A stretch of DNA of 64,000 nucleotides from an uncultured Bacteroidales bacterium. GTDB taxonomy: Bacteria > Bacteroidota > Bacteroidia > Bacteroidales > VadinHA17. Under the pieces are notes generated by a model, which did not search any database, was not told the DNA's origin, and was given only the letters and a program-made list of their open reading frames with translations. Positions 9,752-46,680 of the stretch are shown here, in pieces. Both the position numbers and the translations under genes were made by a program. How positions within the stretch are numbered: the stretch's first letter is position 1; each line of letters begins with the position of its first letter. The stretch covers positions 143,259 to 207,258 of the forward strand of contig CAWJLF010000012.1 in assembly GCA_963843635.1 (NCBI GenBank), given 5' to 3'.

Positions 9752-10501
9752 ATGAAAATTCTGGTTTGTTTAAGTAATGTTCCCGATACCACTACTAAAA
9801 TCAAATTTGCCGAGGATAATACTTCAGTAGATACGAATGGAGTTCAGTGGGTCATAAACCCGTGGGACGAACTATCGCTGACCCGTGCTCTGGAATTAAA
9901 GGATGATGCAGGCAGTGGTATTAATTCAGTTACAGTTGTGCACGTTGGACCGGCTGCCTCTGAACCTACAATTCGGAAGGCTCTCGCTATTGGAGCCGAT
10001 GATGCTGTCAGGGTCAATTCTGAGTCATCGGATGCAATGTATGTTGCGGCTCAAATTGCGGAAGTTGTCAGAAAGGAGCAGTTTGATATTGTCATGTGTG
10101 GAATAGAATCTAGCGATTATAATGGTTCTGCCGTGGGCGGTATGGTGGCGGAATTCCTGGACATTCCATCTGTCTCAGCTGTTTCGGGTATTCAAATTGA
10201 AGGTGGCAAACCTGTTCTGACCCGTGAGATTGATGGGGGTAAAGAAGTTGTATCGGTTCCGGTGCCTTTCGTGGCGATTGTACAGAAAGGTATTGCAAAG
10301 GAGCCCAGGATAGCGGCTATGCGGGGGATAATGATGGCCAGGTCAAAGCCGGTGAAGCTTATTGAACCGGTTGCTGCAGAAATACTTACTGAAATAGTGG
10401 CCTACGAAAAACCTGCCCCACGTGCAGCTTGCAGGTTTATTGATGCTGAAAATGCAGAACAGCTGATCGATATTTTGCAGAACGAAGCGAAAGTAATCTG
10501 A
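9752..10501 (+). CDS. etfB: electron transfer flavoprotein beta subunit
   Basis: MKILVCLSNVPDTTTKIKF...NPWDELSLTRALELK is typical EtfB. It is followed directly by etfA. Confidence 0.9.
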   Translation: MKILVCLSNVPDTTTKIKFAEDNTSVDTNGVQWVINPWDELSLTRALELKDDAGSGINSVTVVHVGPAASEPTIRKALAIGADDAVRVNSESSDAMYVAAQIAEVVRKEQFDIVMCGIESSDYNGSAVGGMVAEFLDIPSVSAVSGIQIEGGKPVLTREIDGGKEVVSVPVPFVAIVQKGIAKEPRIAAMRGIMMARSKPVKLIEPVAAEILTEIVAYEKPAPRAACRFIDAENAEQLIDILQNEAKVI

Positions 10502-10533
10502 TAATTAGTACAAAAACAGTAAATTTAGAAGTT

Positions 10534-11499: not shown

Positions 11500-11506
11500 C
11501 ACTGTA

Positions 11507-11534
11507 GCAGGGACGTTGCAGGCAACGTCCCTGC
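11507..11534. terminator. perfect 13-bp inverted repeat (GCAGGGACGTTGC-AG-GCAACGTCCCTGC) between etfA and the downstream Fe-S gene
   Basis: Read directly. GC-rich stem with no clear T tract after it (ataaaaac), so it may be an attenuator or processing hairpin rather than a strong terminator. Confidence 0.45.
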
Positions 11535-11561
11535 ATAAAAACAGAATTTAATCAGTCAATC

Positions 11562-12896: not shown

Positions 12897-12925
12897 TAAA
12901 CAGAAGAAAACATATTAAACCGAAT

Positions 12926-13720
12926 ATGGAAACCAGGAAAATTGAAGTACCCGTGATGGCTGATCTCTTTGCGAAGGGAGAGAAGCCTGAATACCTGTTT
13001 TGGGTGGGATGTGCCGGAGCTTTTGATGACAGATACAGGAAAGTTGTAAGAGCATTTACCAAGATACTCACCTACCTGGACATAAATTTTGCAGTTCTCG
13101 GAAAAGAGGAGACCTGCACGGGTGATCCTGCCAGGCGTGCTGGAAACGAGATGCTTTACCAGATGCAGGCTTTGCAGGTAATAGAGATACTGAAGATGTA
13201 TGATGTAAAAAAGATCATTACCATATGTCCCCATTGTTTTAATATTTTCAGGAATGAATATCCCGATCTGGGTGGTCATTACGAGGTGTTTAATTATCTT
13301 CAGTTGCTGGACCGCTATATGGCAGAGGGTAAACTGAAGATCAATCAGGCTTCGTTGCAAGACGTTAAAGTCACCTATCACGATCCATGTTACCTTGGAA
13401 GGGCAAATGACATATATGACGAACCGCGTCATATCATTAAGAGACTTACCGGCAATATGGTTGAGATGCACAGGCATAAGAGCTTCGCGCTCTGTTGTGG
13501 TGCGGGGGGTGGTCAGATGTTTAAGGAGGCTGAGAAGGGTGATAAAGAGGTATTTATTGAAAGAACAGAAGATGCTCTTGAAACTGGTGCCAGTGTTATT
13601 GCAACAGCCTGTCCATTCTGTATGACTATGCTTACTGACGGTTTAAAGTATAAAAACAGGGAGAATGAAATAAAAAATCTTGATATTGCTGAATTAATAG
13701 TCCAATCACTTGATATATAA
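12926..13720 (+). CDS. CCG-domain (HdrD/GlcF-like) Fe-S protein, partner of the preceding membrane module
   Basis: The ORF runs 12848..13720. The preferred start is METRKIEVPVMADLF at 12926. Cys-rich CCG-type motifs: WVGCAGAFD, CTGDPARRAGNE, ICPHC, HDPCYLGR, ALCCGAGGG, ACPFC. Confidence 0.7.
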   Translation: METRKIEVPVMADLFAKGEKPEYLFWVGCAGAFDDRYRKVVRAFTKILTYLDINFAVLGKEETCTGDPARRAGNEMLYQMQALQVIEILKMYDVKKIITICPHCFNIFRNEYPDLGGHYEVFNYLQLLDRYMAEGKLKINQASLQDVKVTYHDPCYLGRANDIYDEPRHIIKRLTGNMVEMHRHKSFALCCGAGGGQMFKEAEKGDKEVFIERTEDALETGASVIATACPFCMTMLTDGLKYKNRENEIKNLDIAELIVQSLDI

Positions 13721-13743
13721 ATCCAATTATTAAACTGACAAAA

Positions 13744-15522
13744 ATGGAAAACAGCAAACTTTTGAAAAGCGGTGAATTTCTTGTAAGCGAAGTTGAATCA
13801 AAAGATGTCTTCATTCCGGAAGAATTTAATGAGGAACAGAAGATGATAGCGCAGACATGCAGTGACTTTCTTGAAGCAGAAGTTTATCCTAATATTGAAC
13901 AGCTGGAAAAAAGTGACAGGGATCTCATGAAGAGTATTCTGAAGAAGTCAGGTGATCTTGGATTAATGGGTGTTTCAATACCTGAGGAATTTGGGGGATT
14001 CGGCCAGTCCTTTGTAACTCAGATGCTTGTGGCTGAGACAACAGGTGCAGGTTATTCTTTTTCAGTGGCATATATGGCGCATTGTGGTATTGGCACTCTC
14101 CCGATAATGTATTATGGGAACAAGGATCAGAGGGACCGGTATGTATCAAAACTGGCAACAGGTGAGATTATTGGTGCTTATTGTCTTACGGAACCTGGTG
14201 CCGGAAGTGATGCCAATTCGGGTAAAACAAATGCCAAATTGAGTGAGGATGGAAAAGATTACATCCTTAACGGGCAGAAAATGTGGATCACCAATGCCGG
14301 ATTTGCCGATTCTCTTGTCGTCTTTGCCAAAATTGACAACGACAGGGTCCTCAGTGCTTTTATAGTTGAAAGCAAATATCCAGGCGTGGTAATTGGCCAG
14401 GATGAACACAAGATGGGTATAAAGGGCTCCTCGACAGCACAGATCTACTTCAATGATGTAAAAGTACCTGTTGAAAACCTTCTTGGTAAGAGAGGCGAGG
14501 GGTTCAGGATAGCACTTAGCATCCTTCATATGGGAAGACTGAAGCTTGGGGCCAACGTGCTGGGTGCTGCAAAAAAAACAATAACAGATACGGTAAGATA
14601 TGCTAATGAAAGGAAGCAGTTTGGAGTACTAATATCAACTTTCGGAGCGCTGAAGTATAAAATGGCTCAGCAGGTTATTCGTCTTTTTGCATCAGAATCA
14701 GCTGTTTACCGGGTAAGCAACGATATTGATAACCTGATGAAAAAGCTCACTGTTGATTGTGGTGACTATGGGAGAGCCTCAATCGAGGCTATAAGTCACT
14801 ATGCTGTTGAAGCAGCTATCCTGAAGGTTGTTGGTTCCGAGATGCTTGATTATGTTGCTGATGAAGCAGTTCAGATACACGGAGGAATGGGTTACTCTGC
14901 TGAAATGTCTGTTGAAAGAGGATACCGTGATTCAAGAATAAACAGGATCTTCGAGGGAACAAATGAGATAAACAGGCTCCTGGTGGTTGATACAGCCATG
15001 AAGCGGGCCATGAAGGGTGAGTTTGACCTCTTTGGAGAGGCTGAGGCCTTATACGACAGCCTGGAGAAGATAAATGACGGGAAGAAAGATGGTGAAAGCT
15101 ATTACGAGGAGAAGAAAAGATATATCAAAAACTTTAAAAAGGTCATTCTGCTTTGTATTCATGGAGCTTCCAAACGCTTTGAGAAAAGCCTTATTTACGA
15201 GCAGGAAGTATTGAATAATATAGCGGAAATGATGATGGAAACCTATGTTTCCGAGTCACTGGCGCTGAGGGTTGAGAAGCTGGAATCCTTAAAAGGGAAT
15301 GCATCACTTTACAGGGATATGCTTGATGTCAACCTTTTTGATACTGCCGATATTGTCAGAAAATCTGCTTTTGAGGCGGTCGGTTCATTCTCAGAACCTG
15401 AGATATGCGGTTCGCTGACCGGAGCAGTTGAAGATCTGACAAGGGTTAATTGTATAAATGTGAAAGATGCCAGGCGCAGGATAGCTGACAGGCTTATTGA
15501 AGATAACATGTACAAATTCTGA
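13744..15522 (+). CDS. acyl-CoA dehydrogenase, long form with C-terminal extension
   Basis: 592 aa. Motifs: GAYCLTEPGAGSDA, WITNAG, QIHGGMGY, EGTNEINR. Confidence 0.9.
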   Translation: MENSKLLKSGEFLVSEVESKDVFIPEEFNEEQKMIAQTCSDFLEAEVYPNIEQLEKSDRDLMKSILKKSGDLGLMGVSIPEEFGGFGQSFVTQMLVAETTGAGYSFSVAYMAHCGIGTLPIMYYGNKDQRDRYVSKLATGEIIGAYCLTEPGAGSDANSGKTNAKLSEDGKDYILNGQKMWITNAGFADSLVVFAKIDNDRVLSAFIVESKYPGVVIGQDEHKMGIKGSSTAQIYFNDVKVPVENLLGKRGEGFRIALSILHMGRLKLGANVLGAAKKTITDTVRYANERKQFGVLISTFGALKYKMAQQVIRLFASESAVYRVSNDIDNLMKKLTVDCGDYGRASIEAISHYAVEAAILKVVGSEMLDYVADEAVQIHGGMGYSAEMSVERGYRDSRINRIFEGTNEINRLLVVDTAMKRAMKGEFDLFGEAEALYDSLEKINDGKKDGESYYEEKKRYIKNFKKVILLCIHGASKRFEKSLIYEQEVLNNIAEMMMETYVSESLALRVEKLESLKGNASLYRDMLDVNLFDTADIVRKSAFEAVGSFSEPEICGSLTGAVEDLTRVNCINVKDARRRIADRLIEDNMYKF

Positions 15523-16292: not shown

Positions 16293-16306
16293 ATGATATA
16301 GATCAA
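16293..16306. promoter_or_regulatory. FNR/CRP-type box candidate (aTGAT-ATAG-ATCAA) upstream of the cytochrome operon
   Basis: 9/10 match to TTGAT-N4-ATCAA read directly. It lies about 90 nt upstream of the TATATTTG box. Confidence 0.3.
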
Positions 16307-16382: not shown

Positions 16383-16390
16383 TATATTTG
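16383..16390 (+). promoter_or_regulatory. Bacteroidota-type -7 promoter box for the cytochrome operon
   Basis: TATATTTG. It overlaps the GTG that the ORF track uses as a start, which argues for a downstream ATG start. Confidence 0.35.
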
Positions 16391-16434
16391 TGAATAAATT
16401 AACAATAATTTTTAATATGAATCAGAAATTTAAT

Positions 16435-16794
16435 ATGAAAAGACAGATTTTGGTTGCACTGGCCATGGTTGCCATTATGATCGGAATATCTTCATGTGAA
16501 AAGTACTCTTTTTTGCCACCGGTCATTAACCCGGTTGACACTATCCATTTTGCAACAGATATCCAGCCAATCTTTAATGCAAATTGTATAACATGTCATG
16601 GCAGTCTCAGGGCACCTGATCTCAGAGAAGGGAAATCGTATGAAGCACTTACCAAAGGTGGTTTTGTTGATCAGCCAGGTGAGACAAGCTTACTCTATAC
16701 ACAGATGAACAAATCGGATCATGTTCCAAGGTCAACAGATGCCGATAAACAAAAAGTACTCATCTGGATAAACCAGGGAGCCCTTGATAATTAA
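16435..16794 (+). CDS. monohaem c-type cytochrome lipoprotein with a Planctomycete-cytochrome-C (PSCyt1)-like domain
   Basis: Lipobox MKRQILVALAMVAIMIGISSC. Also IQPIFNANCITCHG ... LIWINQGA, the PSCyt1-like pattern with a single CxxCH. Confidence 0.65.
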   Translation: MKRQILVALAMVAIMIGISSCEKYSFLPPVINPVDTIHFATDIQPIFNANCITCHGSLRAPDLREGKSYEALTKGGFVDQPGETSLLYTQMNKSDHVPRSTDADKQKVLIWINQGALDN

Positions 16795-16825: not shown

Positions 16826-17686
16826 ATGAAAAAGCTCTTAATACTATTGACATTATCTTTCTTTCTTTCTTCTCTGTCAGCACAGGATACTCAGACAAAG
16901 GAAGAGTCCACTCCTGTACGCTTTACCTTTGGAACGAACATGCTCATCGATAATCAGACAGTTGAATCTCCCTATAAAGGTGGATTACAACTTCAGATTC
17001 AGCACAGGTTCAGCCTTATTGAGAACTACCATAACCTTTATGGTATATATGGTTCAGCTAATACGAGGCTTGCTCTGACTTATGGTATTACAGACAAGCT
17101 GATGGTTGGTGTCGGAACAACAAAAGATTACCAGATGCAGGATATAGAGTGGAAATACAGGATCCTCAGTCAGACTGAAGATGGTAAGATGCCTGTTTCA
17201 CTTTCCTACTTCGGGAATGTAGTAGCGGACCTCAGGACAAGTGAAGCCTTCGGCCCTGAACAAAGTTTTAGGAATATTCACAGGTTCTCATATTTTACAC
17301 AGTTGATTCTTGCCCGTAAATTCTCAGAAAAAATATCAGCTCAGATTGCTCCATCGGTTATATATTTCAACTCTGTGCCAAGATACAGTGATACCCAGGG
17401 ATATAAAAACGTGAACTTCGGTATATCAGCCGGGGCACGCGCCAACCTGTTTGGCAACCATTCACTTATACTTGAGTATGATCAGCTTCTTTCAAAACAG
17501 GATCTTGATGTTCAGCCAAAACCCAACCTGGCTTTTGGATGGGAGATCAATACAGCAACTCATACCTTCCAGATTTTTGCAGCCAATTATAACCAGATCA
17601 TCAGCCAGAGGAATCTTGTATTCAATACGAATGATTTCACAAAAGGAGGTTACCTGTTGGGTTTTAATATAACTGTAAGGTTTTAA
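16826..17686 (+). CDS. outer-membrane beta-barrel protein (DUF5777-like)
   Basis: Signal peptide ending SLSAQ, alternating-hydrophobicity strands, C-terminal ...GFNITVRF with a terminal Phe. The DUF5777 assignment is from memory of the family. Confidence 0.6.
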   Translation: MKKLLILLTLSFFLSSLSAQDTQTKEESTPVRFTFGTNMLIDNQTVESPYKGGLQLQIQHRFSLIENYHNLYGIYGSANTRLALTYGITDKLMVGVGTTKDYQMQDIEWKYRILSQTEDGKMPVSLSYFGNVVADLRTSEAFGPEQSFRNIHRFSYFTQLILARKFSEKISAQIAPSVIYFNSVPRYSDTQGYKNVNFGISAGARANLFGNHSLILEYDQLLSKQDLDVQPKPNLAFGWEINTATHTFQIFAANYNQIISQRNLVFNTNDFTKGGYLLGFNITVRF

Positions 17687-17706: not shown

Positions 17707-18714
17707 ATGAATTTTTATAAGTTCAGGATCATTACCCTGTTCGCATTAGCATCATTGAGTTCGTTTGCATTTGCAAGCCCGTTTGATTTTGGAAACCAGG
17801 AAAACAAGATTCAGGATACGACTTCCTTTGTTTCCCCTTTTGCAGAAGATAACGAGAGGTGCTTCAAATGCCACGGTCAGTCATTATACGAATACACTAA
17901 TGAGACTCTAGGACGGCAGGTGCGGGATATTATGTGTTCTGAAAGGATTGTCAACAGGGAGGAGTTCTACAGGTCAAATCATAAAAGCTTCAGCTGTACT
18001 GACTGTCATTCTGAGGAATATACAACATTTCCTCATCCTGGTGAACTGAGGATGGAACAGATGTATAATTGTATCGATTGTCATGGAGGGGATGAGAGGT
18101 TCGCTAAATACCATTTTGAGGAGATTGAGACTGAGTACCAGCAGAGCGTTCACTATAAACTGGAAAAGGATGGATTTTCATGCTGGAAATGTCATAATCC
18201 GCATACTTACAGGATCAGCGTCAGGACATCAGAGAACCTCAGAGAGACCATTGCATATGATAATGCAATATGCCTTAACTGTCATTCCAACTTCAATAAT
18301 TTTCAGTTGCTGACAGACAGGAAAGAGATCAATATCATTCAGAAGCATGACTGGCTTCCAAACCAGACAGCACATTTTGCCAATGTACGATGTATTGAGT
18401 GTCATACCCAGATTAACAGTGAAGTTCCTGTTGCTCATCTTATTAAACCAAAGGAAGAGGCAGTACGTCTTTGCAATGAGTGTCATTCCCGGAATTCTAT
18501 CCTGATGGCTTCACTCTACAAATTTGAATCGAAGGAGAGTCGTCGAAATGGTTTTTTCAATGGTATTATTCTTAATGAATCATATGTTATCGGCGCAAAC
18601 CGGAATGAATATCTTAACCTTCTGAGCCAGTTTTTATTCATTGCCGTACTGGGCATCATTCTCATTCATATCATATTCAGGATCAGAAAAAGTAAAACTT
18701 ATAAAGGAGATTGA
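17707..18714 (+). CDS. heptahaem c-type cytochrome with signal peptide and C-terminal TM anchor
   Basis: Seven CxxCH sites: CFKCH, CTDCH, CIDCH, CWKCH, CLNCH, CIECH, CNECH. C-terminal helix LSQFLFIAVLGIILIHIIFRI. Confidence 0.85.
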   Translation: MNFYKFRIITLFALASLSSFAFASPFDFGNQENKIQDTTSFVSPFAEDNERCFKCHGQSLYEYTNETLGRQVRDIMCSERIVNREEFYRSNHKSFSCTDCHSEEYTTFPHPGELRMEQMYNCIDCHGGDERFAKYHFEEIETEYQQSVHYKLEKDGFSCWKCHNPHTYRISVRTSENLRETIAYDNAICLNCHSNFNNFQLLTDRKEINIIQKHDWLPNQTAHFANVRCIECHTQINSEVPVAHLIKPKEEAVRLCNECHSRNSILMASLYKFESKESRRNGFFNGIILNESYVIGANRNEYLNLLSQFLFIAVLGIILIHIIFRIRKSKTYKGD

Positions 18715-19346: not shown

Positions 19347-20309
19347 ATGAAAGAGATGGAAGAAAATGAAGGTAAACGATCATCGAGACGCAATTTCATC
19401 AAGAAAGTCGGAGTAGGTGTTGGAGCTGTCTCTATTGCCGGCGTTGCCGGAACATCAGTAATAGGAAAAAACAATTTAAAGTCAGGCGAAAAGGTCCGCT
19501 TGCTTTCTACTGATGGCAAACTGGTTGAGGTGGACAAGGATGATATCCAGCCTGCCGGAGATGTTGTAGCTGAATTAAAGGAGGAAGCAAGAGTCGGTCT
19601 GCCAAACAGAAAATTTGTTATGGTAATTGACCTGGCGAAGTGCAAGAATGCCAGAAAATGTGTTGAGGCATGCCAGGAAGGCCACCTTCTGCCGAAGGAC
19701 CACGAGTGGATGAAGATATTTCTTCTCCAGGATGATCATGATACTACAAAGTACTGGTTTCCCCGGCCATGTTTCCATTGTGATAAACCAATGTGCGTTA
19801 GTGTTTGTCCCGTGGGCGCCACATATAAGAGAGATGATGGTATTGTGCTGATTGACAACCAGAGATGTATAGGATGTAAATTTTGTATGACCGGCTGCCC
19901 GTACTCCGTAAGAGTTTTTAACTGGGATGATCCTAAGGTTGAAGTACCGGAAGGCTATGAATACGATCCGGAAAAGGCAATCCCGCAGGTTGAGGGTACA
20001 GTGGGAAAATGTATATTCTGTGCTGATAAGCTTCGTATGGGTGAATTGCCGCGATGCGTCTCCGCATGCCCTATGGGAGTACTGTATTTTGGTGATATCC
20101 TTGAAGATACTGTTACTAACGGAGAAGAGACTGTCAGGTTCAGCAAGCTGATGAATGACAGGGCAGGATATCGTTACCGTGAAGACCTGGGAACCCTGCC
20201 AAGCGTATTTTATCTCCCCCCTGTTCAACGTCTGTTTCCTGTTGAAAGAGGAATGGAGGATCTTCCTGACTCACTTAAACTGAGGTATAAAGATGCCGGC
20301 CCCAGGTAA
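19347..20309 (+). CDS. Tat-exported Fe-S cluster subunit (NrfC/PsrB/HybA-like)
   Basis: Twin-arginine motif SRRNFIKKVG. Cluster motifs: CKNARKCVEAC (CxxAxxCxxxC, second Cys replaced), CFHCDKPMCVSVCP, CIGCKFCMTGCP, CIFC...CVSACP. Confidence 0.85.
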   Translation: MKEMEENEGKRSSRRNFIKKVGVGVGAVSIAGVAGTSVIGKNNLKSGEKVRLLSTDGKLVEVDKDDIQPAGDVVAELKEEARVGLPNRKFVMVIDLAKCKNARKCVEACQEGHLLPKDHEWMKIFLLQDDHDTTKYWFPRPCFHCDKPMCVSVCPVGATYKRDDGIVLIDNQRCIGCKFCMTGCPYSVRVFNWDDPKVEVPEGYEYDPEKAIPQVEGTVGKCIFCADKLRMGELPRCVSACPMGVLYFGDILEDTVTNGEETVRFSKLMNDRAGYRYREDLGTLPSVFYLPPVQRLFPVERGMEDLPDSLKLRYKDAGPR

Positions 20310-20331
20310 TTAACTGCATAATCTGATTATT

Positions 20332-21639
20332 ATGATGACTGAGAAGAAATTGCTTGAGGATTTGACTCCCGAGATTGAATCTACCACATTAAGATGGTAC
20401 CTTACATTTGCCGCATTCTTTATAGTCTTCTGCTTAGGCATCTATGGTTTGATCCAGCAGATTGACAAGGGACATATTGTTACAGGGATGCGAGATAATG
20501 TCGTTTGGGGTCTTTATATTGTCAACTTCATATTCTTTATGGGTTTGAGTTATGCCGGAGCCCTTTTATCAGGAGTGCTTCATCTTTTCCATACGGGTTG
20601 GCGAAAGCCTGTAATAAGGCTTGCAGAACTCATAACTGTTATCTCACTTGTGATAGGACCCTTCTTTATCTTTTTCTGTATAGGCCGCCTCGACAGATTG
20701 CCATTTCTCATATTACACCCCCGTATTCAGTCCCCGATTACTTGGGACGTCATTGCAATCAGCACAGACCTAGTCGGATGTTTTATGTATCTGTATCTGT
20801 CATTCATTGAGGATTTTGCAATTCTTCGCGATTACCAGGAACTCAATGTTCCTCAGTGGAAACGCAATGTCTACAGGGTATTGTCCCTTGGTTTTACCGG
20901 AACCGAAACACAGAAAAAGATATTAAAAAGAGCAAAAAATGTAATGGCATCTATGATTATTGCCATCGCTATCATTGTATATTCTGTTTTGGCCTGGATA
21001 TTCGGTGTTACACTTCAACCGGGATGGCATTCAACTATTTTCGGTCCATACTTTGTTATTGCAGCTGTATTCTCGGGAACTGGCTTACTCATTATACTGA
21101 TGTTCATATTCAGAAAGGTATATCACCTGGAAGAATATATTACAAAACGCCATTTTGTTAATGTAGGGGTACTGCTGACAATTATCGCTGCATTCTATGG
21201 ATATTTCACCTTCAGTGACTACCTGACAAAATGGTATGGATCAATAAAGATGGATTCACTCCTTATTGACAAGCTTTTTTCAGATTATTATTCCCTGTTT
21301 ATATTTGCTAACTATGTGGGTATTCTTATACCATGTGTTATAATAGCGTTCCCGAGATTCAGGAACATAAGGAGTATTACCATTGCTGCCGTGATAGCAG
21401 TGACAGCCCTGTGGGTAAACCGCTATATAATTGTGATCCCTACTCTTGAGACTCCATTTCTTCCCATTCAGGATACACGACCTGACTGGATACAGTATTC
21501 CCCGACATGGGTGGAATGGTCACTTACATTTGCAGGACTTGCTGTTTATGGAATGTTGTTCATGCTGGTCTCCAAGATAGCTCCAATTATCTCTATTTCG
21601 GAGATGAAAGAACAGGATAAGGTTGAGATATTGAAGTAA
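20332..21639 (+). CDS. NrfD/PsrC-family polytopic quinol-interacting membrane subunit
   Basis: 435 aa, about 10 TM helices, immediately downstream of the NrfC-like gene. WGLYIVNFIFFMGLSYAGALLS is a typical NrfD-type helix. Confidence 0.8.
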   Translation: MMTEKKLLEDLTPEIESTTLRWYLTFAAFFIVFCLGIYGLIQQIDKGHIVTGMRDNVVWGLYIVNFIFFMGLSYAGALLSGVLHLFHTGWRKPVIRLAELITVISLVIGPFFIFFCIGRLDRLPFLILHPRIQSPITWDVIAISTDLVGCFMYLYLSFIEDFAILRDYQELNVPQWKRNVYRVLSLGFTGTETQKKILKRAKNVMASMIIAIAIIVYSVLAWIFGVTLQPGWHSTIFGPYFVIAAVFSGTGLLIILMFIFRKVYHLEEYITKRHFVNVGVLLTIIAAFYGYFTFSDYLTKWYGSIKMDSLLIDKLFSDYYSLFIFANYVGILIPCVIIAFPRFRNIRSITIAAVIAVTALWVNRYIIVIPTLETPFLPIQDTRPDWIQYSPTWVEWSLTFAGLAVYGMLFMLVSKIAPIISISEMKEQDKVEILK

Positions 21640-21653
21640 AGCAGAAAGTTATT

Positions 21654-22544
21654 ATGAAAAAAATTATCACAGGCACCCTGATCATACTGGCATTACTGAC
21701 TATTGCTTCAACGGACTCATATTCGCAGGAAGCAGAAATGATAAGTCCGTATATACAGCTGCAATATTTCAAGAATACCAATGACAGTTCATCCTTAAAG
21801 ACAGCTCTTACTTACTCTGTGAACCGGATGGAGCTCCCTATAAAGGACATGAAGATCCTGTTTTATGCCGGAGTAGGAGGGGACAGGAAGCAGATCGGAG
21901 AAGCAGTCACCAACGATAAGGGTGTGGCCATTCTTCATCTTAGTGACAGGTCTGATTTTATTGAAGATGAAACAGGTCAGTGGGCTTTCAGCACTGAATA
22001 TGCGGGTAATGATACAATAGAATCAGCCTCAGCTGATCTTTTGATTCAGAATATAGAAATAGCCATGGAGCTGACAGAGCCGGATAGCATTAAAACAGTT
22101 GCCCTTACCGTTATGAAGGTGACAGATGGGAAAAGAGTACCTGCTGCCGGGGAAATGCTGACAGTTTATGTTCCCCGAATGTTCAGCTTCCTTCCGATTG
22201 GTGATGTTATACTTGACGATGCAGGATACGGATCACTTGAGTTTCCTGCGGACCTTCCGGGTGACAAAGATGGTAACCTGACAATAATTGCCAGGTTTGA
22301 CGAGCACCCGGAATTCGGGAATGTTGAGAAGGAGGCCACTTTAAAATGGGGAGTCCCATCATCTTATTCGATTCCTAAGGGACACAGGGCATTATGGACT
22401 AAAGTAGCTCCCCTGTGGATGATATATACCCTGTCCATCCTTCTGACTGGTGTATGGGGTCATTATATGTTTGCTTTGATAAGCCTTATCAGAATAAAGA
22501 GAGATGCCAAAAAGAATGAATCCGGAGATCTACGGACAAGGTGA
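21654..22544 (+). CDS. hypothetical exported protein with C-terminal TM anchor (operon member, function unknown)
   Basis: Signal peptide MKKIITGTLIILALLTIAS and C-terminal helix LWMIYTLSILLTGVWGHYMFALISLI. No motif I recognise. Confidence 0.5.
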   Translation: MKKIITGTLIILALLTIASTDSYSQEAEMISPYIQLQYFKNTNDSSSLKTALTYSVNRMELPIKDMKILFYAGVGGDRKQIGEAVTNDKGVAILHLSDRSDFIEDETGQWAFSTEYAGNDTIESASADLLIQNIEIAMELTEPDSIKTVALTVMKVTDGKRVPAAGEMLTVYVPRMFSFLPIGDVILDDAGYGSLEFPADLPGDKDGNLTIIARFDEHPEFGNVEKEATLKWGVPSSYSIPKGHRALWTKVAPLWMIYTLSILLTGVWGHYMFALISLIRIKRDAKKNESGDLRTR

Positions 22545-22600
22545 ATAAAAAAATTGCACGAAAATTGTTATCTCTATTTTGTAAATTAAAATGAAGTGTT

Positions 22601-22996
22601 ATGAAAAAAATGAAATTACTTTTATTTAGCTCGGCTCTGCTATTAATGAGCGCATCAATGTCTGCACAGACAAAACCCTGGGTGGTACCCGCGAACTTTA
22701 AATCAATGAAGAACCCAATTGCTATGAGTGATGCCAGTAAAAAAGCAGGCATGACTCTCTATACCAGGAACTGTGCATCCTGCCATGGAAAGGCCGGACT
22801 GGGTGATGGTGTAAAAGCCAGGATGCTGAAAGACTTCCCTGGTGATTTTTCAAAGGCTGATTTTCAGAATCAGACTGACGGTGAACATTTTTATAAGACA
22901 AAGACCGGAAGAGGTGAAATGCCTAAGTATGAAGGTAAGTTATCCGATAATGACATCTGGAACATTGTAAATTATATGAGATCCTTCAAAAAATAG
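22601..22996 (+). CDS. class I monohaem cytochrome c
   Basis: Signal peptide, CASCHG haem site, distal GEMPKY Met ligand motif, 131 aa. Confidence 0.85.
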   Translation: MKKMKLLLFSSALLLMSASMSAQTKPWVVPANFKSMKNPIAMSDASKKAGMTLYTRNCASCHGKAGLGDGVKARMLKDFPGDFSKADFQNQTDGEHFYKTKTGRGEMPKYEGKLSDNDIWNIVNYMRSFKK

Positions 22997-23016: not shown

Positions 23017-23051
23017 AAAAAAGGGACATGCATCAGCATGTCCCTTTTTTG
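23017..23051. terminator. bidirectional rho-independent terminator between convergent cytochrome genes
   Basis: A7-GGGACATGC-atca-GCATGTCCC-T6 hairpin read directly. Confidence 0.7.
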
Positions 23052-23065
23052 TATCTGTTATTCTT

Positions 23066-24127
23066 TTATTTTACTACTGGTGGTGTATAACCCAGTCCAG
23101 TCATTGTAGCGATAGAATTATCAAGAAGAGTGTTTATGTATCCGGGGTTGTGGACACCCAGGCTCTTGTCCTGAGCAACTGCATCATAATCGAGGTAGGC
23201 CAGAACTACATTTGCTTTGAATGTACCTGCTGCTGCGAGGTCCGTAGCCACATCGTATATTCCAGCTGCAATAAGCTGAGCCTTAAGAGTTCCAAGCTTG
23301 GCAGTAACCTCGGTCTGAAGCGCCTCATAGTCAGGAACAGTTGGGTGGCAGGTCATGCAACCTGTGGTATTTATTTCTTCAGCACCGTGTACCATATAAG
23401 TCATACCCATGTTATGTCCACCAGCCTGGTAGCCATAAGGAGTTGCCAGGTGGCAAGTGATACAACCATTATCTCCAAAATGAGAATTGCTTGTCGGATA
23501 GGCTTCCCCGGGAAGTTCAAAAGGAATTTTACCAAGCAGGAAATTGGCCATTGGAGCATGATGTACACCTATACGTGAATCGTCACTGGTAATCACAAAA
23601 TCATCTCCGTCAAGTACAGGTGCCGGCGATACGTCGCGTGCCTGGTGGCATCCCACGCACTGGTTACTGTTACCGTTATCATAAGTAACAGATGCACCTG
23701 CATATTTGAGGATCAGAGTTTCTGCCCCGGGCTTGGTAAGAGCCCAGTCATCAGTGGTGAATGTGGTATGAATCTGATGACATGTGTAGCAGTTGATCTG
23801 CATAGGATCAGAAGGAACGGATATATCAGCATCTGAACCCTCTGCAACATACTCCAGGAAACCCTGGCTGGTATGGCAGCGAACACAACCTTTACGGTTG
23901 GCATAAGCAGCATTTACACCTGTGGCATGAACAGACTCACTCCACTGTGCTTGTTTTGTTTCAATTAAAGCGCTGTTGTCATGACATGTGGTACATGTTG
24001 CATTTGCATCGATACCATTAGCGCCATCTTGCCCATCTTGACCAGCAGGACCAGCAGGACCTTCACAGGACACAAGAATAAATCCAGCTGCAAACAAGGC
24101 AGAAAGTAGTTTAATCAGGTTTTTCAT
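23066..24127 (-). CDS. hexahaem c-type cytochrome lipoprotein with a collagen-like G-X-Y linker
   Basis: Lipobox FILVSC, then EGPAGPAGQDGQDGANG. Six CxxCH sites: CTTCH, CVRCH, CYTCH, CVGCH, CITCH, CMTCH. Confidence 0.85.
   Translation of the reverse strand: MKNLIKLLSALFAAGFILVSCEGPAGPAGQDGQDGANGIDANATCTTCHDNSALIETKQAQWSESVHATGVNAAYANRKGCVRCHTSQGFLEYVAEGSDADISVPSDPMQINCYTCHQIHTTFTTDDWALTKPGAETLILKYAGASVTYDNGNSNQCVGCHQARDVSPAPVLDGDDFVITSDDSRIGVHHAPMANFLLGKIPFELPGEAYPTSNSHFGDNGCITCHLATPYGYQAGGHNMGMTYMVHGAEEINTTGCMTCHPTVPDYEALQTEVTAKLGTLKAQLIAAGIYDVATDLAAAGTFKANVVLAYLDYDAVAQDKSLGVHNPGYINTLLDNSIATMTGLGYTPPVVK
24024..24059. repeat. two pairs of tandem 9-bp repeats encoding the G-X-Y linker
   Basis: ccatcttgc-ccatcttga-ccagcagga-ccagcagga on the + strand, encoding GPAGPAGQDGQDG on the - strand. 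Confidence 0.8.
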
Positions 24128-24240: not shown

Positions 24241-24254
24241 TTGATAAATGTCAA
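24241..24254. promoter_or_regulatory. FNR/CRP-type box candidate TTGAT-AAAT-GTCAA in the divergent cytochrome/regulator intergenic region
   Basis: 9/10 match to TTGAT-N4-ATCAA. Its centre is about 40 nt upstream of the start site predicted from the TATTTTTG box at 24274. Confidence 0.35.
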
Positions 24255-24331: not shown

Positions 24332-25027
24332 ATGTCAGATAAAAATTTAAAAGAAAATTACGAAAACTGCACGAAAACATGGAAGAATTTTAAATACCTG
24401 ACAGGGGATGAGCTTCATATGATTGATGAAAACAGGTATGAAGCAACATTCAAACCCGGTGAAATAATATTGAAGCAGGGATCTCCTACTTCCAATGCTT
24501 TATTTCTTACTGATGGAATGGCAAAGACATATATTGAAGGCAATAATGGCAGGAACTTCATCATGGGAATAGCATTGCCCGGGCAATTGATAATTGGCCC
24601 TGGCGCTTATGTAAATTCGAGGCATACATATTCTGTAGCTGCCATTACTACTGTACAGGCCTGTTTTATCAACTTCGACATATTCAGACGGCTGTTAAAA
24701 ATAAACGGGAACTTTGCCGAAAGCCTGATGGAAGATATTAGTATCAATTCAATGAGATCGCATACCAGGATGGTGAACCTTGCTCAAAAGAAAATGCCGG
24801 GAAGACTGGCTGAAGCTATACTCTATTTTTCTGATGAGATCTTCAAATCTGATGAATTTGAAGTGATACTTTCGAGGCAAGAATTGGGAGAGATGACCAA
24901 TATGGCAAAGGAATGTGTTGTCAGAATTCTCAGGGAACTTGAGGAATTGGGAGTTATTCGTTCCGATTCATCAAAAATAAAAATAGTGGACAAAAAGAAA
25001 CTAGTTCAGATATCAGAAAAAGGCTGA
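24332..25027 (+). CDS. Crp/Fnr family transcriptional regulator (no N-terminal FNR Cys cluster)
   Basis: cNMP-binding-like beta-roll (FKPGEIILKQGSPTSNALFLTDGMAK) and C-terminal HTH SRQELGEMTNMAKECVVRILRELEELGVI. Only one Cys in the N-terminal 30 aa. Confidence 0.85.
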   Translation: MSDKNLKENYENCTKTWKNFKYLTGDELHMIDENRYEATFKPGEIILKQGSPTSNALFLTDGMAKTYIEGNNGRNFIMGIALPGQLIIGPGAYVNSRHTYSVAAITTVQACFINFDIFRRLLKINGNFAESLMEDISINSMRSHTRMVNLAQKKMPGRLAEAILYFSDEIFKSDEFEVILSRQELGEMTNMAKECVVRILRELEELGVIRSDSSKIKIVDKKKLVQISEKG

Positions 25028-25097
25028 CGGAGCAGGAAGGAAAGTGTATGGGTTTCCTGCTTCCTTTTATTATATTAAAACAAAATCTATAATTATT

Positions 25098-28000
25098 ATG
25101 AAACATTTGAAGTTTCTCATCTCTCCTGTTTTCATGGGAGTATTGTTTGTAATATTTGCCGTATCGATGGCAGTTGCAACGTTTATTGAAAATGACTTTG
25201 GCTCATCAGCTGCATATAATATGGTATATAACACCAGGTGGTTCGAATTAATACTCCTGCTCCTGGTTGTCAACCTTATTGGACAGCTGATAGTTTTTAA
25301 GCTGTTTAAGAAAACCAGGCTGACTGGTGCCCTTTTCCATCTGTCATTCGTCGTAATGATATTAGGTGCAGGGATAACACGGTATTTCGGGTGGGAAGGA
25401 ACCATCCACATCAGAGAAGGAGAAGTGCAGGACAAATGTTTTTCGACCGACAAGTACATTGGATATTCAATAAAGGATCAAAATGGGAATCTAGTGGCTC
25501 AGGATATGGAAAAGTATTCAATGACCTCTGTTTCAGCAGAAAACTATGAAAAAAACATAAGCCTTAATAACAATAACTATCAGCTTGTTCTTTCCAAAAT
25601 ACTTCCAAATGCTTCCGAAGTCATTTCAGAAAATCCGGAAGGCACTCCTGTAGTTTCACTGGTCCTCACAAAAGACATGATTACCCAGGATAACCTGATA
25701 ATAAAAAAAGGAGAAAGTAAGTCATTTGACGGAGTGTCATTCAGCTTTGACCCTGCCATATCAGCTGACATAAATATTTCATACGATTCAGCCGGGTTTT
25801 ATCTCAGTTCAGGTACTGAAATAGGAGAGATGGGAATGGGATCCCATGATATCATAAAAGTTGCTCCAGGGGAAAGGGTGGAGATGTCGAAAATGCAGGT
25901 ATTTACCATAAATGACCTTAAGATTATTCCACAGACATTAAATGCATCGGGAATGGTAACTGCTGTTGCGGTCAATCCGGCTCAGCGTAATACAGGTCTG
26001 AATGCCTTTATTTTTCACGTTTATGGCAATGATAAATCGGAGACCCTTTATTTGTGGGATCGCAATTCTGAAAAGGTAGCGACAGACAGTTGTGTGGTTG
26101 ACGGTTATAAAATTGCGCTTAGTTATGGTTCTAAGATCACAACTCTTCCTTTTTCGATTAAGCTGAATGATTTCATTATCGACAGGTACCCCGGCTCAAA
26201 CAGCCCATCGGGCTATAAGAGTGATGTGACACTTATCGACAGTAAGGCAGGCATTGAAAAACCCTTTATGATCTTTATGAATAATATTCTTAAATACAAA
26301 GGTTATCGTTTTTATCAGTCCTCTTTTGATCGCGATGAGCAGGGTACCATTTTGTCTGTCAATCATGACAGGGCAGGTATGTTAGTAACCTATACAGGTT
26401 ATGCATTGCTGTTTTTCTTTATCATTCTTTCCCTGATAAACAGGAATTCTGTTTTCTATAAGGTAAATGCTGGTTACTGGCAGTCAAACCTGAGAAAGGT
26501 AATCCCATCGCTGATCATCATCTTCTTTCTTTCGGGTCTTTCTTCGGTGAATGCTCAAAAGCTGGTTCCCGGGAAAGATGTTTCGACAGAATTCGGGAAG
26601 GTGCTTGTACAGGATCAGAAGGGAAGGACCAAACCTCTGTTTACTCTCAGTAATGATATCCTGCGCAAGGTAACCAGGAAGAATGAGTTTGACGGATTAA
26701 CCTCCATGCAGGTATTCATGGGTATTTTCCTTGATTTCGACCACTGGAAGGATGTACCTCTCATCACTGTTTCAAATAAAGACCTCCGTAAGAAGATAGG
26801 AATAAGTGGAAAATATGCAGCCTTTTCAGACCTGGTTGATCTTGGAGGGAACGGTAACTATAAGATATCCGCGGATGTCAACAGCGCCTATTCAAAGGCA
26901 CCCGGCGAAAGGACAAAGATGGATAAGGAGGTGATGAAGGTCGATGAAAGACTGAACATCATATACATGATATATAAAGGTGATTTCCTGAAACTGTTCC
27001 CTCTCAAGAATGGAACTCATGACTGGGGTTCTCCTGAAGAAGCTCTCAAAGGGGCAGTAAGCAAGGAAGATTCAGTATACCTAAGCAATATTATCCCGGT
27101 ACTGTCTAATGCCATGACCACCAATAATATTGCTGATACAAGAAAGATTACCGAATCAATAAGCGGATACCAGGAAAGATTTGCACAGTATGATCTTCCT
27201 TCAACCTTTAAAACGAAAGCCGAATTATTATATTACAGGCTTGGCATCTTTGAAAAGCTATTCCCCTTTTATGCCACTGTCGGACTCATTATGCTTATTA
27301 GCCTGATAACAATGGTTATCAGAGGTAAAAATAAAAAATCTCTATTTATCAGGTTGTTGGGATGGCTGTTGTTTGGCGGCTTTCTTTTCCATACTTTTGG
27401 TTTGGTCCTCAGGTGGTATATTGCCGGTCACTCACCGATGAGCAACGGGTATGAATCAATGATTTTTATTTCCTGGGTTACTCTTCTTGCCGGGTTTATC
27501 TTCAGCAGAAAATCGCCTTTTGCACTTTCTGCAACTGCAGTGCTCGGGTCCATGACCCTCATGGTTGCACATCTCAGTTTTATGGACCCTGAGATTACCA
27601 ACCTTGTGCCTGTATTAAAATCATACTGGCTTACTTTGCACGTTTCAGTTATAACAGGTAGTTATGGGTTTCTGGGATTAGGAGCCATTCTGGGACTGAT
27701 AACACTCATACTGCTGACCTTGTCAAATAATAGGAACCGTGAAAGGATATCTGTAACCATTGATGAATTAACAGTAATTAATTATAAGACCCTTACACTG
27801 GGACTGTATTTTCTGACGATCGGTACTTTTCTCGGTGCTGTATGGGCAAATGAATCATGGGGCAGGTACTGGGGATGGGATCCAAAAGAGACATGGTCGC
27901 TTATTACAATAATTGTATACAGTATTGTGATACACTCACGACTCATACCAGGTATGAAAGATGTATATTCTTTTAACCTCCTGTCACTCGTTGCTTTCTT

Positions 28001-28184
28001 TTCAGTATTAATGACCTATTTCGGTGTAAATTACTACCTGTCGGGACTGCATTCCTACGCGGCAGGGGATCCTATACCTATTCCTTCATTTGTATATATA
28101 ACGATTATTGTGCTGTCATTACTCTCGCTGGTGGCCTATCTTAAATATACAAAATGGAAAAAACCTGAAGCAGGTATTAAATAA
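25098..28184 (+). CDS. ccsBA: fused system II cytochrome c biogenesis protein (ResB/CcsB plus CcsA haem lyase)
   Basis: N-terminal ResB-like region (preferred start MKHLKFLISPVFMGVLF). C-terminal CcsA with the WWD motif WGRYWGWDPKETWS and conserved His-containing helices. Confidence 0.85.
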   Translation: MKHLKFLISPVFMGVLFVIFAVSMAVATFIENDFGSSAAYNMVYNTRWFELILLLLVVNLIGQLIVFKLFKKTRLTGALFHLSFVVMILGAGITRYFGWEGTIHIREGEVQDKCFSTDKYIGYSIKDQNGNLVAQDMEKYSMTSVSAENYEKNISLNNNNYQLVLSKILPNASEVISENPEGTPVVSLVLTKDMITQDNLIIKKGESKSFDGVSFSFDPAISADINISYDSAGFYLSSGTEIGEMGMGSHDIIKVAPGERVEMSKMQVFTINDLKIIPQTLNASGMVTAVAVNPAQRNTGLNAFIFHVYGNDKSETLYLWDRNSEKVATDSCVVDGYKIALSYGSKITTLPFSIKLNDFIIDRYPGSNSPSGYKSDVTLIDSKAGIEKPFMIFMNNILKYKGYRFYQSSFDRDEQGTILSVNHDRAGMLVTYTGYALLFFFIILSLINRNSVFYKVNAGYWQSNLRKVIPSLIIIFFLSGLSSVNAQKLVPGKDVSTEFGKVLVQDQKGRTKPLFTLSNDILRKVTRKNEFDGLTSMQVFMGIFLDFDHWKDVPLITVSNKDLRKKIGISGKYAAFSDLVDLGGNGNYKISADVNSAYSKAPGERTKMDKEVMKVDERLNIIYMIYKGDFLKLFPLKNGTHDWGSPEEALKGAVSKEDSVYLSNIIPVLSNAMTTNNIADTRKITESISGYQERFAQYDLPSTFKTKAELLYYRLGIFEKLFPFYATVGLIMLISLITMVIRGKNKKSLFIRLLGWLLFGGFLFHTFGLVLRWYIAGHSPMSNGYESMIFISWVTLLAGFIFSRKSPFALSATAVLGSMTLMVAHLSFMDPEITNLVPVLKSYWLTLHVSVITGSYGFLGLGAILGLITLILLTLSNNRNRERISVTIDELTVINYKTLTLGLYFLTIGTFLGAVWANESWGRYWGWDPKETWSLITIIVYSIVIHSRLIPGMKDVYSFNLLSLVAFFSVLMTYFGVNYYLSGLHSYAAGDPIPIPSFVYITIIVLSLLSLVAYLKYTKWKKPEAGIK

Positions 28185-28494: not shown

Positions 28495-29843
28495 TTGAGA
28501 AAAATTAAACTAATAGACAACATTTCAGGGCTGCAGCTATTTCATCTGATGAAGCCGGTTGTCTTCCTTATTATAAGCATTATTTTTACAAAGACACATT
28601 ATACCCGTGCAGATATAGGGCAATGGGAAATGTTTATGTTTATCGCAGGACTTGTGACTTTCTTCTGGGTTACAGGTCTGATTCAATCACTTCTCCCCCT
28701 GTACCACAGGAACAGGACTTACAGGAAATTGGGAAGTAATGAGAGTTCAAAGTCACCTGAGATTTTCAATGCATTTCTTCTCCTGTGCGTTTTCAGTGTA
28801 TTTGTATATATCATAGGGCTCTCTCTGAAATATAATTTTTCAGTTTTTCATATGTCGGGTGATGTTCCCTATATAAACCTTTTATTGCTTTATATCCTGC
28901 TGAGCAGTCCTGTATGCCTTATCGAGTATATCTATCTTCTCAACAACAGGTCATACCGAATTTTTCAGTACGGCGCCTATACATATACCACACAGTTGAT
29001 CCTTGTTATAACACCTTTGCTTCTCGGAAAAGACATTATTTGGTCCATTTACGGGCTACTGGCTATTACCGGAATAAGATGGATATGGTTGATTTTTCTT
29101 CTAAGACGCTATACTGAAATGAAAATTTCAGTGAAATTTATGAAAGAACATCTCTACCTGGGCTTGCCGCTGATTATCACTACATTGATAAGCGGGTCGG
29201 CACAGTACACGGACGGAGTTATTGTCTCGGCTGTTTACAGAGATCCACGGTGTTTGCATTATTCCGTTACGGTGCAAAGGAATTTCCTCTGGTCCTTATG
29301 CTAGCCAATGGTCTGAGTGCAGCAATGCTTCCGGAATTTTCCACCCGTGAAAAGATGAAGGAATCACTGGCTAAAATCAGGGCTAAGTCGAAGAGGTTGA
29401 TGCACCTTCTTTTCCCTCTTGCCATGATCATGATGCTGTTTTCCAGGTGGATATACCCGAGGATGTTCAACCCTGACTTCTACAGAAGCGCTGATGTCTT
29501 CCTGATTTATTCCCTGCTCATCATTCCCAGGCTTATCTTTCCCCAGACCATTATTGTAGGCAGGAAAAAAACACATATTACATTAATAGCTGCTATTCTG
29601 GAACTGATTGTTAATATTCCCATGAGTCTTTTAATGATAAAGCTCGGATATGGAGTTGTTGGGGTAGCACTATCCACATTTATCGTCTACTTAATAGGAA
29701 AAGGATTTCTGGTTGCTTACCTGTGGGTAAAGATGAAAATAAGACCTTCCGATTATATTCCACTGGAGGTATATACCCTGTACTCTTTTTTAGTGGGAGT
29801 TATGTTTGTACTTATTGACCACAGGGTAATTGGTAATTATTAA
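28495..29843 (+). pseudogene. polysaccharide biosynthesis / oligosaccharide flippase (Wzx/MOP-like) with one frame disruption near 29236-29250
   Basis: ORFs 28495..29304 and 29250..29843 overlap. The junction reads ...VSAVYRDP / (T)VFALFRYGAKEFPLVLMLANGLS. About 12 or more TM helices in total, about 449 codons. Confidence 0.6.
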
Positions 29844-29920
29844 CTTGCCGGTCGGTGGCCGGAATCCCGTTCAGGGTATGGAAAATCTGGTTATATTTGT
29901 AATACGCTCCACTAAACTGA

Positions 29921-46669: not shown

Positions 46670-46680
46670 GAGGTTAAAAT

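Follow-up and report, generated by a model that had tools for sequence, protein, structure and literature searches.

A compact NrfCD-type module with an immunoglobulin-like subunit and a three-cysteine cluster site in Bacteroidota, a candidate menaquinol:cytochrome c route

A 64,000-nucleotide (nt) stretch of an uncultured Bacteroidales bacterium (VadinHA17; GenBank assembly GCA_963843635.1, contig CAWJLF010000012.1, positions 143,259 to 207,258), referred to as the window, encodes four proteins within positions 19347-22996. They are an iron-sulfur (Fe-S) protein of 320 amino acids (aa), an NrfD-type membrane protein (435 aa), an anchored protein of 296 aa (p296) and a monohaem cytochrome c (131 aa, cytc131), each where the original prediction had placed it. 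That prediction compared their order to alternative complex III (ACIII, ActABCDEF). Residue numbers below refer to the window proteins unless ActC or QrcC is named. The four genes and the motif of main interest are:

19347..20309, + strand, NrfC-like four-cluster Fe-S subunit exported by the twin-arginine translocation (Tat) system, with a conserved N-terminal extension
19641..19673, + strand, Cys group I motif CKNARKCVEAC, with Ala102 in place of the second Cys
20332..21639, + strand, ActC-like NrfD membrane subunit with ~10 transmembrane (TM) helices (Pfam NrfD PF03916, E 8e-30)
21654..22544, + strand, p296, with a signal peptide, two immunoglobulin (Ig)/macroglobulin-like beta-sandwich domains and a C-terminal TM helix
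22601..22996, + strand, cytc131, a soluble periplasmic class I monohaem cytochrome c (CASCH)

We read NrfC, NrfD and p296 as one inner-membrane complex, a stripped-down relative of ACIII that would provide a menaquinol:cytochrome c route; we give this reading a probability of roughly 55%. Electron transfer between menaquinone and a cytochrome c of the periplasm is the most likely task of the module. The genes are real, with 4890 database homologues of the Fe-S protein (E≤1e-20) and 797 of p296 (E≤1e-3). Locus counts refer to 72 genome loci from species-level genomes. L-numbers denote fetched genome loci, and P-numbers denote representative clusters from a HMMER scan of NrfD against 1.84 billion representatives, whose alignment also supplied the NrfD signature used below.

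Pfam analysis of the Fe-S protein detected Fer4-type domains only (Fer4_11, 1.2e-22) and, as anticipated, no molybdopterin-like domain. A Tat signal of its own comprises SRRNFIKK at residues 12-19 and a hydrophobic stretch over residues 21-39. No gene for a molybdenum (Mo) partner lies near it, and the cluster genes and further window genes that were scanned include no molybdopterin gene. The spacer between the signal and the first cluster, put at about 60 residues beforehand, measures ~55-60 residues up to Cys99 and is strongly conserved, with S46, G47, L52, L53, G57 and L59-D63 among the invariant positions. The NCBIfam equivalog cutoffs used were 200 bits for DsrO, 350 for DsrP, 400 for QrcC and 570 for QrcD; the NCBIfam cutoff for PhsC was 204. 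The best curated family was DsrO at 185.7 bits; the B subunits of Ttr, Qrc, Nrf and Arr ranked after it, far under their cutoffs. The best solved relatives were PsrB (2vpw_B, 8.8e-27) and ArrB, and the C-terminal domains of ActB scored lower (6f0k_B 7.5e-19, 6btm_B 1.5e-14). By these scores the Fe-S protein is nearer to DsrO/PsrB than to ActB.

The predicted CxxAxxCxxxC motif is genuine: it spans C99 to C109, with Ala102 at the expected second Cys. No Cys is missing from the remaining three groups (C142/145/150/154, C174/177/180/184 and C222/225/237/241). Group I lacks Cys at its second position in 120 of 120 best metagenome homologues, all at least 76% identical. The same holds for all 71 family members from Bacteroidota genome loci, with identity down to 48% (Ala in 68, Val in 2, Leu in 1). 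The position is thus non-Cys in every family member examined, and the missing second Cys of group I defines this Fe-S family. In 12 loci the opposite strand encodes an NrfC paralogue with the canonical CxxCxxCxxxC, which also occurs in two of three Fe-S partners of more distant NrfD relatives (L074 and L078; L076 has an insertion in the motif); the loss is therefore derived and fixed in the clade. Because the remaining ligands of the site (C99, C105 and C241) are invariant, a three-ligand cluster is probably retained, rather than an empty site. Most simply, the site would hold a [3Fe-4S] cluster.

The AlphaFold2 (AF2) model of the Fe-S protein, built from 121 input sequences that were all at least 76% identical, was unusable at a mean confidence (pLDDT) of 36.4, so the cluster geometry rests on alignment with PsrB, NarH and EbdB. 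All four Cys groups align to PsrB and NarH. Group III (CIGCKFCMTGCP) pairs with C-G-W-R-M-C-x3-CP of NarH and C-K-G-H-R-H-C of EbdB, the classical [3Fe-4S] motifs of the membrane-proximal cluster. Group III of NarH and DmsB represents the membrane-proximal cluster. For comparison, ACIII-type clusters (L080, L081 and L079) were reached via NrfD representatives carrying the ActC signature. The L080 Fe-S subunit has an intact group I and a group III reading C-V-G-T-R-Y-C-x3-CP; L081 is alike and L079 shows the same C-x-G-T-R-x-C pattern. The likening of the three-Cys site to that of ACIII therefore held for the kind of substitution and failed for its place, which is group I (distal) here and group III (proximal) in ACIII. 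By homology, the window protein would carry the ActB kind of substitution at the other end of the wire, the end that contacts the catalytic subunit in Mo enzymes. Since there is no Mo partner, the distal end would be a natural exit to, or entry from, a soluble carrier. In ACIII the [3Fe-4S] cluster adjoins the quinol site and has a potential of +140 mV (PMC5928083, PMC7439408). Phe179, which lies between the second and third Cys of group III, is invariant and takes the position of the essential Tyr113 of QrcC (PMC13059093). Tyr is kept at this position in the neighbouring paralogue and in the L080 ACIII-type subunit, and L079 has Ser.

That paralogue belongs to a second, divergent NrfC/NrfD pair (~25-32% identity) found in many Bacteroidales loci, the window not among them, on the minus strand just 3' of the cytc131 gene (L004, L005, L008-L010, L012, L013, L020, L038, L048-L050, L057). 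This pair has the canonical CxxCxxCxxxC and Tyr in group III, and an extra cytc131 paralogue comes after it. Farther out, in the distant NrfC/NrfD family, putative copper (Cu) proteins replace or accompany the cytochrome c. In L076 (1237-1833 and 4183-4839) one protein gives a weak Pfam cupredoxin match, type-1-Cu-like Cys/His/Met motifs can be read by eye there and in L078 (1-318), and L078 also encodes a dihaem cytochrome c. These neighbours recall auracyanin, an acceptor of ACIII.

The NrfD protein aligned end to end with ActC of Rhodothermus marinus (6f0k_C, 178.8 bits, E 1.9e-51) and Flavobacterium johnsoniae (6btm_C, 167 bits, 7e-48). ActF matched weakly (1e-7), and PsrC was not found at E<0.01 in the solved-structure search. 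Quinone-site residues were mapped with the ActC residue lists of PMC5928083 and PMC8076601 and counted in 65 family members; the window signature is W59 F66 C116 D139 Y217 I223 R364. The ActC pocket residues W82, I86, F89, L166 and V250 are kept or conservatively replaced; the pocket W, I and F as well as Asp169 (D139 here) vary little or not at all, and Arg395 (R364), the gate, is likewise conserved. ActC His139 is replaced by Cys in 52 of the 65 members and by Asp in 12 (C116 in the window), Asp253 by Ile, Leu or Val (I223), and Pro136 by Ile. The cytoplasmic half-channel shares 9 of 14 residues with ActC. The periplasmic half-channel shares 2 of 6 (Y270 and R395), with two more conservative changes (Glu to Asp). 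Ser245 of ActC, proposed to communicate with ActD and ActF, is Ile here, which fits the absence of those two subunits.

Full-length clusters nearest to the window NrfD (~36-58% identity) mostly read WF[C/D]DH[I/L/V]R, a few deviating at one position. The canonical WFHDHDR common to both solved ActCs occurred only among representatives at ≤~35% identity, which have the H/D/D triad. Because the signatures split by identity, we place the protein in a sister family of ActC and not inside it; it did not fall within a functionally defined clade, so that neither this outcome nor a non-conserved Cys-to-Ala position, each named beforehand as refuting the original prediction, was observed. DsrP has a strictly conserved Asp where ActC has His (bioRxiv 10.64898/2026.08.25.746951), and the DsrP model gave the window NrfD 81.4 bits.

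p296, in which no motif had been recognised beforehand, has no Pfam or NCBIfam family and contains no Cys and no haem motif. The structure prediction that had been proposed for it gave a confident AF2 model (pLDDT 84.6): behind a signal peptide come two Ig-like beta-sandwich domains and a single C-terminal helix (254-290). Foldseek returned generic Ig, macroglobulin, ribophorin- and antibody-like folds only (TM-score ~0.2-0.3), which gave no lead to its function, and a sequence search against the PDB returned nothing (best E 0.51). Conservation is highest in the juxtamembrane and helix core R245-x-L-W...P253...W268, and distant members keep the second sandwich and the helix only. H270 was considered as a haem or proton ligand and rejected as a general feature, being restricted to close relatives.

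The genes for NrfC, NrfD and p296 are contiguous in 67 of the 72 loci, cytc131 comes after p296 in 67 as well, and the trio is tandemly duplicated in four. NrfD and p296 are fused in P0362 (740 aa), P0367, P0370, P0374 and P0387; a cytochrome c gene follows P0362 on its contig. Topology allows these fusions, since the signal peptide of p296 turns into an eleventh helix. In L071 a cytc131 homologue is fused to the second sandwich and helix of p296, and in L077 one protein beside a related NrfD combines an Ig-like domain, two helices and a cytochrome c domain. Contiguity and both kinds of fusion indicate that p296 is a true subunit of the complex. Where the trio is duplicated (L055 4433-10876, L056 4083-10828, L063 and L072), the two or three copies share one DUF5777/cytochrome set.

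The cytochrome c at the end of the set, cytc131, best resembles the c552 type (1e-14) and has no lipobox Cys; its Met ligand is probably that in GEMPKY. Its match to ActE is weaker (5e-6), which does not support an assignment to ActE.

We compared the module with known systems. With ACIII (PDB 6F0K, 6BTM) it shares an NrfD closest to ActC, with ~10 TM helices, Asp169, Arg395 and most proton-channel residues kept. Both have a periplasmic Fe-S subunit whose four-cluster motif set includes one three-Cys site, and in both the likely acceptor is a monohaem cytochrome c. It differs in lacking the molybdopterin-like B1, the pentahaem ActA, ActD and ActF. Only one of the three quinone-site triad residues is kept, the three-Cys site is elsewhere, an Ig-like single-pass subunit is added, and the cytochrome c is soluble and not a lipoprotein. 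In the ACIII-type clusters L080 and L081, separate genes encode the molybdopterin-like B1 (768 aa) and the Fe-S B2 (248 aa). Two adjacent NrfD genes lie before that of a PF11821 ActD, and both clusters also encode a cytochrome c and a pentahaem cytochrome whose helix is N-terminal. p296 was rejected as ActD: it gave no PF11821 match, and it has one helix with periplasmic beta-sandwiches versus the two helices and cytoplasmic termini of ActD. Of the proposed ACIII-like order, then, the ActC-like NrfD stood, together with the observations that there is a single NrfD gene and that a cytochrome b gene is inserted upstream. The correspondences to ActA (a multihaem cytochrome, see below) and ActD did not stand, that to ActE was not supported, and the Fe-S protein lies nearer to DsrO/PsrB.

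DsrOP of DsrMKJOP and the 'DsrOhPh-Cyt' arrangement (bioRxiv 10.64898/2026.08.25.746951) are likewise NrfCD pairs that team up with a cytochrome and lack a Mo enzyme. Among the NCBIfam models the Fe-S protein matches DsrO best, and the wider NrfD family has Asp at the ActC His, like DsrP. Membership was rejected on the curated cutoffs, which neither DsrO (185.7 of 200 bits) nor DsrP (81.4 of 350 bits) reached. No other Dsr family was matched among the genes scanned in and around the cluster, dsrMKJ and sulfur genes being absent, and NrfD scored much higher against ActC. QrcABCD is also an NrfCD-type module working with periplasmic cytochromes c, and a [3Fe-4S] cluster has been reported in QrcC. 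It too was rejected on score (QrcC 120.6 of 400 bits, QrcD 47.1 of 570 bits); QrcA and QrcB are missing here, and Tyr113 of QrcC is Phe. Geobacter Cbc4 (CbcSTU) and the Melioribacter NrfCD (Mros1571-1572), likened by description, combine NrfC-type, NrfD-type and cytochrome subunits. Both have been proposed as quinol:cytochrome c oxidoreductases feeding extracellular electron transfer (EET) (bioRxiv 10.1101/2025.04.14.648717; PMC3534657). Neither has p296 or a DUF5777 link, and Cbc4 differs further in its membrane-anchored NapC/NirT-type tetrahaem cytochrome and four [4Fe-4S] clusters. The window genes scanned contained no Mo-bis(pyranopterin guanine dinucleotide) catalytic subunit adjacent to the module, of the sort found in the complex iron-sulfur molybdoenzymes PsrABC, Ttr and Dms. 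They contained no nos gene either, and gene context sets the module apart from NosG/NosH. Because catalytic-subunit-free NrfCD pairs are already in the literature (including DsrOhPh-Cyt) and have been proposed to feed periplasmic cytochromes (PMC3534657; bioRxiv 10.1101/2025.04.14.648717), the present module extends a known idea rather than founding a new kind.

The four genes, separated by 14-56 nt, are the end of a longer operon with intergenic gaps of 1-56 nt. Its remaining features and the adjoining genes are:

16293..16306, + strand, Crp/Fnr-type box ATGATATAGATCAA, upstream of the operon
16390..16794, + strand, cytc134, monohaem cytochrome c (CITCH) with lipobox GISSC, first gene of the operon
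16826..17686, + strand, DUF5777 beta-barrel with signal peptide and C-terminal Phe (Pfam PF19089, E 1.7e-68)
17707..18714, + strand, MHC335, CbcA-like heptahaem c-type cytochrome with signal peptide and C-terminal TM helix
18716..19327, + strand, CbcB-like four-TM cytochrome b of the PhsC/'thiosulfate reductase' type (PF01292, 7.9e-23)
23017..23050, both directions, bidirectional intrinsic terminator with a 15-bp stem, closing the operon
23066..24127, - strand, MHC353, hexahaem c-type lipoprotein (lipobox LVSC, then a Gly/Pro-rich linker), convergent to the operon
24332..25027, + strand, Crp/Fnr-family regulator
25044..28184, + strand, large multi-TM protein, by reading of its sequence a putative fused CcsB/CcsA (system II cytochrome c biogenesis)

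The true start of cytc134 is probably near 16435, and the DUF5777 protein is presumed to be an outer-membrane component. cytc134 adjoins DUF5777 in 51 of the 72 loci. A hexahaem lipoprotein like MHC353 is present in 50, distant taxa included, the Crp/Fnr-family regulator in 46 and a homologue of the putative CcsBA in 42. DUF5777, cytc134 and the hexahaem lipoprotein co-occur in Bacteroidales, Saprospiraceae, Flavobacteriaceae and Cytophagales. The conserved Bacteroidota unit is thus a lipoprotein cytochrome c, DUF5777, NrfC, NrfD, p296 and a cytochrome c, usually with the hexahaem lipoprotein nearby. DUF5777 has 1865 homologues, and the 120 listed are all single-domain. These are close orthologues, and none of them is a cytochrome-barrel fusion, which would have favoured a reading in the manner of Cyc2. 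No paper in the library searched mentions DUF5777, and searches on Bacteroidota, NrfD, multihaem and EET topics found no account of this module.

In 31 of 48 orthologous loci (among L002-L068) a box of the form NTGAT-N4-ATCAA (NTGATATAGATCAA) lies ~120 nt 5' of the gene that opens the operon, against a background of 0.036 per 320 nt. Within the window alone FNR boxes are not above chance (4 found, 7 expected), and the box is credible only because its position is conserved across orthologous loci. The Crp/Fnr-family protein does not have the N-terminal Cys cluster of FNR. A second near-match to the box occurs at 24241-24254, between the hexahaem and regulator genes.

The two genes between DUF5777 and NrfC form a unit of their own. 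MHC335 has seven CxxCH motifs and a TM helix at 305-323, and the cytochrome b scored 179.9 bits against PhsC (cutoff 204). The cytochrome b was always paired with MHC335 in the loci examined, and the pair was found in 48 loci of a Bacteroidales subclade only. Saprospiraceae, Lewinellaceae, Flavobacteriaceae and others do not have it, and there DUF5777 lies directly 5' of NrfC (9 loci). Because it is missing from these distant relatives, the pair is not an ActA equivalent. MHC335 itself was rejected as ActA on this absence, its seven haems, its C-terminal anchor and a PDB search that gave no ActA match. The architecture, a seven-haem c-type cytochrome with a C-terminal anchor plus a PhsC-like ('thiosulfate reductase-like') dihaem cytochrome b, matches the published description of Geobacter CbcBA. 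We conclude that MHC335 and the cytochrome b are a separate CbcBA-type pair, an inserted second quinol oxidase. The comparison with GSU0593/GSU0594 is by architecture; the gene order here is A then B, and the regulator is of the Crp/Fnr type versus the sigma-54 BccR type. CbcBA is a genetically validated EET quinol oxidase in Geobacter, and Bacteroidetes homologues have been noted (bioRxiv 10.1101/2021.04.15.440034).

In the mechanism we propose, menaquinol would be oxidised at the remodelled periplasm-side pocket of the ActC-like subunit. Electrons would then pass along the four-cluster wire, from the intact proximal [4Fe-4S] (group III) to the distal three-Cys site (group I), probably a [3Fe-4S] of higher potential; the motifs are seen, and cluster type and position follow by homology. 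They would leave to soluble cytc131, which may dock on or near p296, as the fusions suggest. Since most of the ionisable residues of the ActC proton pathway are retained, proton translocation may be coupled. The complex would be where electrons enter, at the inner membrane, a route across the envelope that leads to an acceptor outside the cell or in the periplasm. Such a role is suggested by predicted co-transcription with the lipoprotein cytochrome c and DUF5777, and by co-occurrence with the hexahaem lipoprotein, the Crp/Fnr regulator and the putative CcsBA. In the Bacteroidales subclade the CbcBA-type bc quinol oxidase would be a second, parallel entry. The direction of electron flow, the acceptor and the role of DUF5777 are putative.

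Several points weigh against a menaquinol:cytochrome c route to an external acceptor. The quinone site lacks His139 (Cys or Asp here) and Asp253 (Ile or Leu here) of ActC, and the Tyr essential in QrcC is Phe179. With these residues replaced, the quinone chemistry may differ or run in reverse. cytc131 looks like a class I His/Met cytochrome, a type usually of high potential, which suits Fe(III) reduction at low potential poorly. Aerobic Flavobacteriaceae and Saprospiraceae are among the carriers of the module; DUF5777 is small (~250 residues), and its role as an electron-passing porin is speculative; and with an AF2 pLDDT of 36 for the Fe-S subunit, the [3Fe-4S] and its distal position rest on motif homology. 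Part of this evidence would suit a module working backwards as a Qrc-like cytochrome c:menaquinone reductase, which takes electrons from outside (e.g., from Fe(II), reduced humics or a syntrophic partner) via the DUF5777/cytochrome pair and cytc131. An outer-membrane monohaem cytochrome with a barrel, a class I monohaem c and an ACIII-like complex parallel the Cyc2-Cyc1-ACIII/bc1 scheme proposed for iron oxidisers. The c552 type of cytc131, a high-potential distal cluster, the presence in aerobes and the cytochrome bd quinol oxidase encoded in the window (45113-47811) would agree with electron entry. Uphill transfer from a high-potential cytochrome to menaquinone, however, would cost proton-motive force with no obvious gain for an organotroph, and the Tyr now replaced by Phe is the one essential for quinone reduction in QrcC (PMC13059093). 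The operon moreover holds a CbcBA-like quinol oxidase, which works outward in Geobacter, and adjoins an Etf/acyl-CoA dehydrogenase electron-input block. We regard the reverse reading as the minority case, at something near one chance in a handful.

We consider it rather unlikely that the module is a generic electron-delivery device for a periplasmic reductase whose gene lies elsewhere in the genome, in the manner of NrfCD with NrfA or NosGH with NosZ. Soluble enzymes of the periplasm are common clients of NrfCD-type pairs (PMC8076601). No catalytic enzyme was found near the module in any locus examined (neither in the Marinifilum and Aestuariivivens loci nor among the window genes scanned), so that an unlinked partner could be envisaged. 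The conserved neighbours across distant Bacteroidota, however, are always cytochromes, DUF5777 and p296, the fusions tie the complex to a cytochrome c and not to an enzyme, and the scan of window genes revealed neither nos nor nrfA nor a gene for a Mo enzyme. Very improbable, in our view, is a true ACIII variant with equivalents of ActA-B-C-D-E. The gene order matches superficially and ActC is the best structural homologue of NrfD, but B1, ActD (PF11821), ActF and ActA are all missing, the triad is reduced to one residue, and the three-Cys site is in group I. The L080 and L081 clusters have every one of these ACIII features, and the canonical ActC signature is confined to relatives at ≤~35% identity.

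The preferred menaquinol:cytochrome c complex may be part of something larger. We suggest tentatively, and with less confidence than for the complex itself, that the six or seven conserved genes form an undescribed Bacteroidota cross-envelope conduit, a 'mini-ACIII' plus a split Cyc2-like haem/barrel pair. For Bacteroidota of soils, wetlands and the sea it could be a main route of electron exchange with extracellular minerals, humics or partner cells. Anoxic soils, peat and sediments hold many Bacteroidota, whose respiration without soluble acceptors is poorly understood. The module is widespread (72 species-level genomes, and hundreds to thousands of metagenome homologues), tightly conserved and regulated. 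It is also a natural experiment on NrfD-type converters: an ActC-like subunit without ActA, ActD and ActF, with swapped polar residues at the quinone site, a low-coordination cluster moved to the far end of the wire and a new Ig-like subunit.

The 72 genome matches were all from Bacteroidota or from metagenome-assembled genomes (MAGs) that are evidently mis-binned. Most carriers are Bacteroidales MAGs from soils, fens and lakes. Three cultured genera, Marinifilum, Aestuariivivens and Lentiprolixibacter, carry the module, which makes the predictions testable. Contigs L050 and L068 are labelled as Nanoarchaeota and Bifidobacteriaceae MAGs, probably through binning contamination.

Directly 5' of the operon, positions 9752-15522 encode EtfB and EtfA together with an Fe-S protein of 444 aa, a CCG-domain protein of 290 aa and an acyl-CoA dehydrogenase (ACAD) of 592 aa. 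This block looks like an input module that passes electrons from electron transfer flavoprotein to the quinone pool. The Fe-S, CCG and ACAD genes are present in 35-42 fetched loci and, in the window, lie 5' of the cytochrome cluster; their recurrence could reflect function or mere shared ancestry. The Fe-S open reading frame (ORF, 11562-12896) and the CCG-domain ORF (12848-13720) overlap by ~50 nt in different frames. They may be two genes that overlap, or a single HdrD/GlpC-like gene that a frameshift or an error of assembly has split. After the putative CcsBA, at 28495-31165, are three ORFs (269, 197 and 414 aa) without a Pfam family, with homologues in 16-18 fetched loci. Elsewhere in the window are genes for a flavodiiron-type protein (41371-42594), CydAB (45113-47811) and the [FeFe]-hydrogenase maturase HydF (58637-59869, minus strand), a set that fits an oxygen-tolerant anaerobe with a menaquinone-based chain.

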